The notes under the pieces were generated by a model. That model was not told the DNA's origin. It saw nothing but the letters and a program-made list of their open reading frames with translations, and searched no databases. DNA of 4,347 nucleotides, taken from the IMG/VR virus record IMGVR_UViG_2671180849_000006; one strand, given 5' to 3'. Made by a program: the position numbers and the translations under genes. Below are positions 1,882 through 4,347 of this stretch, piece by piece; position 1 is the first letter of the stretch, and every line of letters begins with the position of its first letter. The DNA is from a virus (Duplodnaviria > Heunggongvirae > Uroviricota > Caudoviricetes).

Positions 1882-4347
1882 TCAACGAATACTGATGCCG
1901 GAAGCCGCTTTTTTGGTCACAATCACCGTACAGTCGGTGATATTGCCTGCCCCCTGATTGCCTTTCTGGAAAATCTTAAACTCCAGAGTGACGCTACCAC
2001 CACCACTAGGCATATCAATAACTGCACTGTAACTACCGGGAATGGCCCCTTTAGTTTCTCTGGATGCGATTAATACGCCGTTTTTGCGAACTTCAAAACC
2101 ATAACCCGTGTATCGCGTGCCTCCTGGGTTATTTCCGCTCCCCGGATCGTCATACGCTATACCGTTAAAAATAATGGGCGGAATAATAATCTGGCGGTCA
2201 AAGTTATGATCATCGCTGATGGTGACTGTAACCGTCCCGTTTGGTGTTTCCGTGTTACCCCACGTACCGACTTTTTTCGGGAAGGCTTTTGATACAGCTT
2301 TAACGAAATCCCCTCTGACCTGGGTCGCCTCCAGCATGCCCTTAATCGTACAGTTCTGGTTAATCGTGACATTGTTGAGCGTTCCTGAGTTCGCATTCAC
2401 ACTACCACTGATATCCGCATTTTTAGCGGTCAGCTTTCCGTCTGATGTCAGGGAAAATACCGGAGGACTGCCACCGCTGGTAATGGTGGGGGCCGTCAGG
2501 CGCTTCAGGAACACGTCGTTCATGAATATCTGATTGCCCTGCGCCACAAACATCGGCGTTTCATTCCCGTTTGCCGGGTCAATAAATGCGATACGGTTAG
2601 CGGCAACCAGAAACTGACTCAGTTTGCCTTCCTCCGTGTCCTCCATGCTGAGGCCAATACCCGCGACATAATGTTTGCCGTCTTTGGTCTGCTCAATTTT
2701 GACGCCCCACATGGCATTCCACTTATCGTTAGCATCCTTCCACTCTTTCGAAAACTGCTCCAGTTTGCTGGCGTTATCCTCCGTCAGGTCGACTTTTTCC
2801 AGCAGCTCTTTACCAAGATGGGATTCGGTTATCTTGCCTTTGAAAAAATCCAGGTAACCTTCCGCATCATCGCTCGCCCGACCGACGGCCTCCACGAATG
2901 CCGATTTGCCAACGGTGTTCACACTGCGGATATAAAAGTAATAATCATGGCCCGGTTTGATATTGATACTGGCGGCTATCCAGTACAGCCCCGTGCCAAG
3001 GTAGCGGGCTGTGGTTTCAACCTGCCTGATATCGGTAATCCGCGTTTCCGAACCACTGATATCCGCATTTTTAGCAGTCAGCTTTCCGTCCGGTGTCAGG
3101 GAAAATGCCGGTGGATTTCCACCGCTGGTAATGGTGGGGGCCGTCAGGCGCTTCAGGAACACGTCGTTCATGAATATCTGATTGCCCTGCGCCACAAACA
3201 TCGGCGTTTCATTCCCGTTTGCCGGGTCAATAAACGCGATACGATTGGCGGCAACCAGAAACTGGCTCAGTTTGCCTTCCTCCGTGTCCTCCATGCTGAG
3301 GCCAATACCCGCGACATAATGTTTGCCGTCTTTGGTCTGCTCAATTTTGACAGCCCACATGGCATTCCACTTATCGTTGGCGTCCTTCCACTCTTTCGAA
3401 AACTCCTCCAGTCTGCTGGCGTTATCCTCCGTCAGCTCGACTTTTTCCAGCAGCTCCTTGCCGAGATGGGATTCGGTTATCTTGCCTTTGAAAAAATCCA
3501 GGTAACCTTCCGCATCATCGCTCGCCCGACCGACGGCCTCCACGAATGCCGATTTGCCAACGGTGTTCACACTGCGGATATAAAAGTAATAATCATGGCC
3601 CGGTTTGATATTGATACTGGCGGCTATCCAGTACAGCGCCGTACCAAGATAGCGGGCTGTGGTTTCAACCTGCCTGATATCGGTAATCCGCTTTTCCGAG
3701 AACCAGAACTCAAACTGTACCGTCGGGTCATAAACGGCAAGATGCGGCGTGGCGGTTATCTGAAAATAGCCCGGTGTCAGCTCAATCCGAGACGGCGCTG
3801 CCGGTGCGGCAATCCGGAACGATACCGATGCCGGATCGCCCTGCTGTCCCCACGCATTTACCGCCCGGACAGTCAGCCTGTAGTTCCCCGGCGCCAGTTG
3901 CGTGAAGCGGTATGTGGTTTCCGTCGTCCTTGCCGTACTGACCAGCCGCTCACTGCCATCGTCCGCTGCCACGGTCAGGCGAAGCAGGAAGCTCACCCCC
4001 TTCACCACCTTCGGCGTGTCCCAGCGCGCCAGCACCTGATATTCCCCGCTGTCTGCGGTGACTTCGACAGTCAGGTGCTGCACCGCGGGCGGCGTGACGC
4101 CATTCACCGTGCCGCTCTGGTCGCCGTCAAAGTGCGCCCCGTTATCCACGATGGCTTCTTTTTCGGGTACATGCTGCACGGCGGTAATGGCATACGTGCC
4201 GTCGTCGTTCTCACGGATACTCACGCAGCGGAACAGGCGCTGGCGCAACGTCGGCAACTTCAGCCCCCATACGCTGTATTCGGCAACGCCGTCAGGAACA
4301 CGGCTCACTTTTACCTTCACGCCGTCGGTGACGGACTGGACCTCCAC
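1882..4347 (-). CDS. J: Host specificity protein J (central tail fibre / tip attachment protein J), C-terminal 821 codons; N-terminus lies beyond the window end
   Basis: Single open minus-strand frame to the window edge, ending at TGA 1884..1882. The translation contains segments I recognise as lambda gpJ-like (e.g. [64 protein letters not shown], and [213 protein letters not shown]). It lies upstream of lom as in lambda. Confidence 0.9.
1885..2403 (-). other. C-terminal ~173-aa module of J, putative receptor-binding domain, divergent from the lambda J C-terminus as I recall it
   Basis: After the second repeat unit the protein continues [172 protein letters not shown]. It shares only short motifs with the lambda J end ([21 protein letters not shown], a terminal ...K.A.GIS..). 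The DNA here looks more AT-rich than the upstream J sequence (by eye). In lambda the C-terminal ~250 aa of J determine LamB recognition (established knowledge). Confidence 0.6.
2404..3699 (-). repeat. In-frame direct tandem duplication inside J: two 648-bp units (2404..3051 and 3052..3699), ~96% identical, no indels
   Basis: Direct comparison of the two units at an offset of exactly 648 bp gives roughly 25 substitutions and no gaps (hand count). The protein shows two consecutive ~216-aa blocks ([17 protein letters not shown]...[12 protein letters not shown]), the second with ~8 substitutions (A->G, E->D, R->K, E->Q, A->G, N->S, A->V, P->S). The plus-strand shadow ORFs 2675..2857 and 3323..3505 are the same duplicated element seen 648 bp apart. 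Confidence 0.95.

Follow-up and report, generated by a model that had tools for sequence, protein, structure and literature searches.

The J gene in the DNA analysed here probably ends in a receptor-specificity module of the phage 434 type, with OmpC rather than LamB as its porin, a reading to which we assign a probability of roughly 0.88. This is the classical h434 host-range module, and as such it is already known and not new. Exchange of the J C-terminus between lambdoid phages, including the switch from LamB to OmpC in h434, has been textbook knowledge since the 1970s.

The window, by which we mean the whole stretch of 4347 nt under analysis, contains the end of the tail operon of a lambdoid prophage, comprising J, lom and stf, with all genes on the minus strand (Table 1). 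It corresponds to the entire 4347-bp contig CYDZ01000083.1 of the draft E. coli assembly GCA_001284165.2. The J reading frame runs off the window at position 4347, reaches its stop codon at 1882-1884 and is open across all 821 codons in between. The contig breaks off within conserved J sequence at one end and within the collagen-like repeats of stf at the other, a pattern typical of assembly breaks at sequences common to several prophages; approximately 532 N-terminal residues of J and the genomic context consequently lie outside the contig. The collagen-like part of stf (window 108-370, 65-70% GC) contains a family of 56-nt direct repeats, mostly at a spacing of 99 nt. Two long open reading frames on the plus strand (62-457 and 64-924), antisense to stf, look like by-products of stf composition.

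Table 1 Features of the 4347-nt window
Feature	Coordinates	Strand	Basis and remarks
J C-terminal 173 codons plus stop, receptor-specificity module	1882..2403	-	Corresponds to lambda J residues 965-1132; open reading frame, alignments to lambda and 434
Receptor-binding domain proper, Pfam PF12421 Ig_GpJ_C (module residues 37-172)	1888..2295	-	Pfam, AlphaFold2, Foldseek
Module residues 1-36, end of fibre shaft and linker into receptor domain	2296..2403	-	Decaying identity to lambda
J duplication, copy 2	2404..3051	-	Corresponds to lambda J residues 749-964; self-alignment, Pfam coordinates
J duplication, copy 1	3052..3699	-	Novel junction between 3052 and 3051; self-alignment, Pfam coordinates
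Upstream J, cut by contig end	3700..4347	-	Lambda residues 533-748, by lambda alignment; first Ig-like domain and first 34 profile positions of the second
Terminator-like hairpin followed by T-run, between J and lom	1842..1859	-	The phage 434 record has an annotated terminator at the corresponding position
lom (Ail/Lom outer-membrane protein), 434-type allele	1212..1811	-	Pfam Ail_Lom, E 8e-119
stf side tail fibre gene, N-terminal 382 codons with collagen-like repeats, cut by contig end	1..1147	-	Pfam phage_tail_N, Collagen, Phage_fiber_C

The preliminary description held that the last 173 residues of J (1885..2403) diverge strongly from lambda while the region upstream is nearly lambda-identical, and the alignments bear out both statements. 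Over window J residues 1-433, identity to lambda J residues 533-965 is 97.7% at the protein level and 95.5% at the DNA level. The module, by comparison, shares 73 of 162 aligned residues with lambda J (45%), and the Pfam-defined receptor domain alone 48 of 126 (38%), values well below the >90% identity to lambda J residues ~960-1132 that, according to the preliminary description, would have counted against a non-lambda module; the module does not belong to the LamB-binding lambda J class. So large a departure from lambda is far more than chance would produce, and the divergence of the J C-terminus is therefore real.

In 60-nt windows, nucleotide identity to lambda is 0.90-1.00 upstream of the module, drops through 0.80, 0.67, 0.57 and 0.40 in ~100 nt past the end of a duplicated block within J (Table 1), and remains at 0.32-0.65 over the rest of the module to the J stop codon. 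A sharp transition had been placed at the end of this duplicated block; the transition itself is real, but it is graded and starts ~10-25 codons inside the module. Module residues 1-22 still match lambda at 18 of 22 positions and the following stretch at about 11 of 22, the Phage_Tail_Tip profile reaches J residue 656, which is 8 residues into the module, BLASTN homology to lambda extends to window 2326, and the Pfam receptor domain starts only at module residue 37. The identity profile between lambda and phage 434 is the same as that between lambda and the window; as 434 is without the duplication, the breakpoint is a trait of the 434 allele that does not depend on the duplication. The coincidence of the breakpoint with the end of the duplication is approximate.

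Base composition is not uniform along J. The GC content is 62.0% in the further upstream part of the gene, 51.7% and 52.3% in the two copies of the duplicated block, and 48.0% in the module, which corresponds to a z-score for the module of -3.0 against all upstream J, of -1.55 against the adjacent block (not significant) and of -2.1 against lambda's own module (54.6%). Much of the same downward gradient is present in lambda J itself (61.4% then 52.6%), so that only the final step in GC is specific to the module. GC3 is 50.3% in the module and 46.9% in its divergent part, as opposed to 62-63% in the block and 62% in lambda's module. The suggestion that the module is more AT-rich therefore holds, most clearly in this GC3 shift of 12-15 points, and is weak on total GC.

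The origin of the divergent sequence is indicated by its identity to the J C-terminus of phage 434, with which the module shares 169 of 173 residues (97.7%). At the nucleotide level it is 98.3-98.5% identical to phage 434 and to the hybrid 'Lambda h434 imm21', and it thus shows the near-identity to the phage 434 J or lambda h434 C-terminus that characterises the h434 class. The flanking context of that class (J, terminator, 434-type lom, stf) is likewise present, with window positions 1-3051 collinear with 434 at 96.4% identity. Protein identity to the module is 100% for J of phage mEp460_ev081 and for the J product of a complete E. coli chromosome (P0088). The alleles compared in detail with the window were those of lambda, 434 and mEp460_ev081. 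Relative to 434, and with the window residue given first in module numbering, the four substitutions are N55D, I144V, Q146H and G151R. In the databases the 434-type module occurs as two recurrent sub-alleles, namely the window type and a 434-like type with (W/R)AGN. Among the 243 records of J C-termini in the phage collection, 74 have at least 90% identity to the module and 169 less than 60%, with none in between; on these sequence comparisons, the J C-terminal domains of the collection form discrete classes.

The 434-type module is real but ordinary. Its module-specific 449 nt were found in 2113 of 5426 complete E. coli genomes, or about 39%, with at least 80% coverage in 2092 of them, and at least 99% identity was observed in 630 records. 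The module is also present in many Stx1 and Stx2 converting phages.

Horizontal exchange of a receptor-binding domain, as put forward in the preliminary description, is in agreement with the abrupt drop in identity, the shift in GC3 and the sharing of the module across differing backbones. Compared with lambda, the non-homologous segment extends from window 2325 down to 1340 and thereby takes in the end of J, the terminator between the genes and roughly the 5' three quarters of lom, within which lambda homology resumes at window 1339. The encoded Lom shares 46.5% of its residues with lambda Lom and 96.5% with 434 Lom. This non-lambda segment of ~1 kb is common to phage 434, many Stx phages and E. 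coli prophages. Among 434-type phages the module shows 2-8 mismatches in 519 nt and the upstream part of J 37-49 mismatches in 648 nt; a cassette that enters different backbones by recombination should be better conserved than upstream J, as the module is. The ~1-kb segment, from the end of J through the terminator and most of lom, is probably such a cassette, moved by recombination within conserved flanks. As a side observation, the J receptor domain and lom may move jointly as one cassette.

Divergence in place, through mutation or diversifying selection acting on a lambda-type domain with no horizontal exchange, would fit the conservation of framework residues in all J types, which implies shared ancestry. 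Nevertheless, we find this explanation hardly credible, because nucleotide identity changes from 95-100% to 32-57% in about 100 nt together with the 12-15 point shift in GC3, the same module at the mismatch counts given above stands behind upstream regions that differ at 37-49 of 648 sites, and the divergent segment crosses the intergenic region into lom. It is already contradicted by the absence of intermediates at 60-90% identity among the 243 phage records.

Pfam assigns the module to PF12421 (Ig_GpJ_C, 'Tip attachment protein J, C-terminal receptor binding domain') with 93.3 bits against a gathering cut-off of 26.2 (E 1.8e-26), covering profile positions 1-134 of 135. The domain sits at the extreme C-terminus of J, after Ig_J, Ig_J_second and Phage_Tail_Tip, the last two of which are doubled here. 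Sequence matches in the PDB that span the whole module include 9wca, 'A8 gpJ 713' (E 8e-39), and lambda gpJ 8xcj (E 7e-30). The AlphaFold2 model of the module monomer is an all-beta sandwich with a mean pLDDT of 76.3, and its best four Foldseek matches in the PDB are all gpJ fibres (TM 0.68-0.72, E about 1e-14), namely A8 gpJ bound to OmpC (9wcb, TM 0.72), lambda gpJ bound to LamB (8xcj, TM 0.69), and the closed states of A8 and lambda gpJ (9wca and 8xck, respectively). The next match is ten orders of magnitude weaker (E 1.7e-4). Certain framework residues are invariant across all J types in the alignment columns. On the basis of sequence and predicted structure, the module is homologous to the lambda domain and shares its fold, although the sequences have diverged; it is not an unrelated domain.

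The trimeric J of lambda ends in an Ig-like receptor domain, four bottom loops of which touch the porin, and receptor binding remodels the beta-prism and the helical shaft and opens the tail tip (PMC11101478). Host specificity is set by the J C-terminus (PMC3509688; PMC11101478; PMC12502783). A lambda phage whose J is replaced by that of 434 uses OmpC, which is the receptor of phage 434, instead of LamB (PMC3509688; PMC11101478), and OmpC use is conferred by 434 J (PMC12502783). Furthermore, C-terminal portions of natural gpJ variants that were grafted onto lambda gpJ at residue 964 produced OmpC-dependent particles, and two of these variants, A8 and 1A2, differ in the OmpC alleles used (PMC11338833). 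The engineered swap point at residue 964 is the upstream boundary of the module, which marks the module as a proven portable specificity cassette.

A receptor other than LamB had been suggested for this J, with OmpC, FhuA or another outer-membrane protein as candidates. Of these, OmpC is documented for the 434 allele, and FhuA or any other protein is unsupported; FhuA and LamB were both rejected as receptors on allele identity. The assignment to OmpC is based on the 97.7% identity to 434 in combination with the genetics of 434 and lambda-h434 in the literature, from which we infer that the J of the window, if functional, would dock on OmpC and trigger ejection likewise. The J trimer would then present its C-terminal beta-sandwich domains at the end of the central tail fibre, and the loops of these domains would dock onto a trimeric outer-membrane porin, which for the 434 allele would be OmpC and not LamB. 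By analogy with the lambda-LamB and A8-OmpC complexes, porin binding would rearrange the fibre shaft and open the tail tip for DNA ejection.

As other gpJ variants discriminate between OmpC alleles and the module has four differences from 434, the preferred OmpC variants could differ between the two. A further-reaching alternative is that these four substitutions have shifted the specificity of a 434-type module to another subset of OmpC or to another porin, for which the recurrence of two 434-type sub-alleles in databases and the difference between A8 and 1A2 gpJ in OmpC alleles used (PMC11338833) can be cited. This appears very unlikely given that 97.7% of the module residues are those of 434, that the isolated phage mEp460_ev081 has an identical module, and that none of the four positions is known to contact the receptor. 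A literature search found no receptor typing of mEp460 itself.

The sole unusual feature of the window is an in-frame tandem duplication of 648 nt (216 residues) in J, the copies of which (Table 1) are 96.1% identical with 25 mismatches. The duplicated block covers the Phage_Tail_Tip region (Pfam positions 2-130 of 139) and, ahead of it, the second Ig-like domain (FNIII-2) without its N-terminal third (Ig_J_second positions 35-104 of 105), and there is no in-register microhomology at the junction (3051/3052). The first 434 nt of copy 1 show no difference from phage 434, and the last 300 nt of copy 2 are nearly identical to it; the differences from 434 lie in the junction-adjacent parts of both copies. 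No single donor allele could be named for these junction-adjacent parts, the copies being mosaic relative to 434 and ev081.

Viral, metagenome and GTDB-representative contigs did not contain the junction 20-mer GATATCAGTGGTTCGGAAAC, and a 90-nt junction probe was covered in no complete E. coli genome or phage record. Among the best 120 protein homologues, none had the duplication besides the product of this contig. The best database matches span 3699 nt and not 4347, and are therefore without the duplication. A pure artefact of the assembly graph, in which two J alleles had been joined, is unlikely: mis-traversal requires an edge from the end of the block to its start, and with no microhomology, reads spanning the junction must exist, although this does not amount to proof. 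Six J homologues of odd length (P0003, P0005, P0064, P0065, P0070 and P0077) were considered as further duplications and rejected, as they actually consist of unrelated N-termini fused to J. These six and P0004 exemplify the many fusions among J homologues in public assemblies, in which a terminase, ClpP-like protease, ParB-like or major-capsid N-terminus precedes the C-terminal half of J in the same reading frame; one of them is a J-J chimera from Shigella sonnei. Such fusions suggest frequent deletions and rearrangements in defective lambdoid prophages, or misassemblies.

With its duplication, the J protein that carries the module may be non-functional in this strain. The start of the duplication breaks an Ig-like domain, which makes a functional protein doubtful: because the block sets in only at position 35 of the 105-position profile for the second Ig-like domain, copy 2 opens with a truncated domain that follows a complete shaft. 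The module could accordingly be a relic, in a J inactivated by the upstream duplication or in a defective prophage, and this would be compatible with its 434-type identity. The restriction of the junction to this contig and the many rearranged J genes in databases, for example the terminase-J fusions, are in line with inactivity, whereas an open frame through all 821 codons and a module identical to that of an isolated phage are not what a relic would lead one to expect; on balance we regard it as possible, if somewhat unlikely. We consider it improbable that the duplication is both real and tolerated, in which case the central tail fibre would have a doubled shaft (with part of FNIII-2, the helical shaft and the beta-prism repeated) and the OmpC-binding domain would be held further from the tip. 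If true, the lambda-type fibre would thereby have a natural variant of altered length, which could aid reach through O-antigen or capsule or alter the signal from the receptor to the tip.

The assignment of a 434-type, probably OmpC-directed module has little discovery value, given that J exchange has long been known and is used in the engineering of gpJ chimeras, and that OmpC-bound gpJ structures have been solved. Its practical value is in annotation, where it allows a 434-type label for the prophage tail tip and a prediction of OmpC dependence. The neighbouring duplication of the fibre shaft, if real, is the one feature worth follow-up.

Several known systems can be compared with the J of the window. 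Phage 434 J (OL657226.1, UMO75286.1) and the lambda h434 hybrids (OM418627.1) have the same module class and the same J-lom-stf order, with OmpC as receptor, but 434 J (1137 residues) is without the 216-residue duplication and differs by the four module substitutions. The J of mEp460_ev081 (LR597641.1), an isolated temperate coliphage, matches the module at 100% in protein with 2 nt mismatches in 519, whereas its upstream region differs from the window at 49 of 648 sites and also lacks the duplication. The receptor domain of lambda J (P03749; 8xcj, 8xck) belongs to the same Pfam family and shares the fold (TM 0.68-0.69) and the position at the end of a trimeric fibre; it differs in sequence (45% identity over the module and 38% over the domain), in indels between conserved stretches and in binding LamB. 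A8 gpJ (9wca; 9wcb with OmpC of E. coli EDL933) provides the best match among solved structures (E 8e-39, TM 0.70-0.72) and is an OmpC-binding domain grafted at lambda residue 964, but it represents a different allele class with 49% identity to the module in global alignment and 46% in the Foldseek alignment. The tail fibre of phi330 (PV189401.1), a lambdoid siphophage, is only 46.9% identical to the module, and this phage, which derives from an enterohaemorrhagic E. coli strain, needs OmpC as judged from knockout and complementation (PMC12502783).
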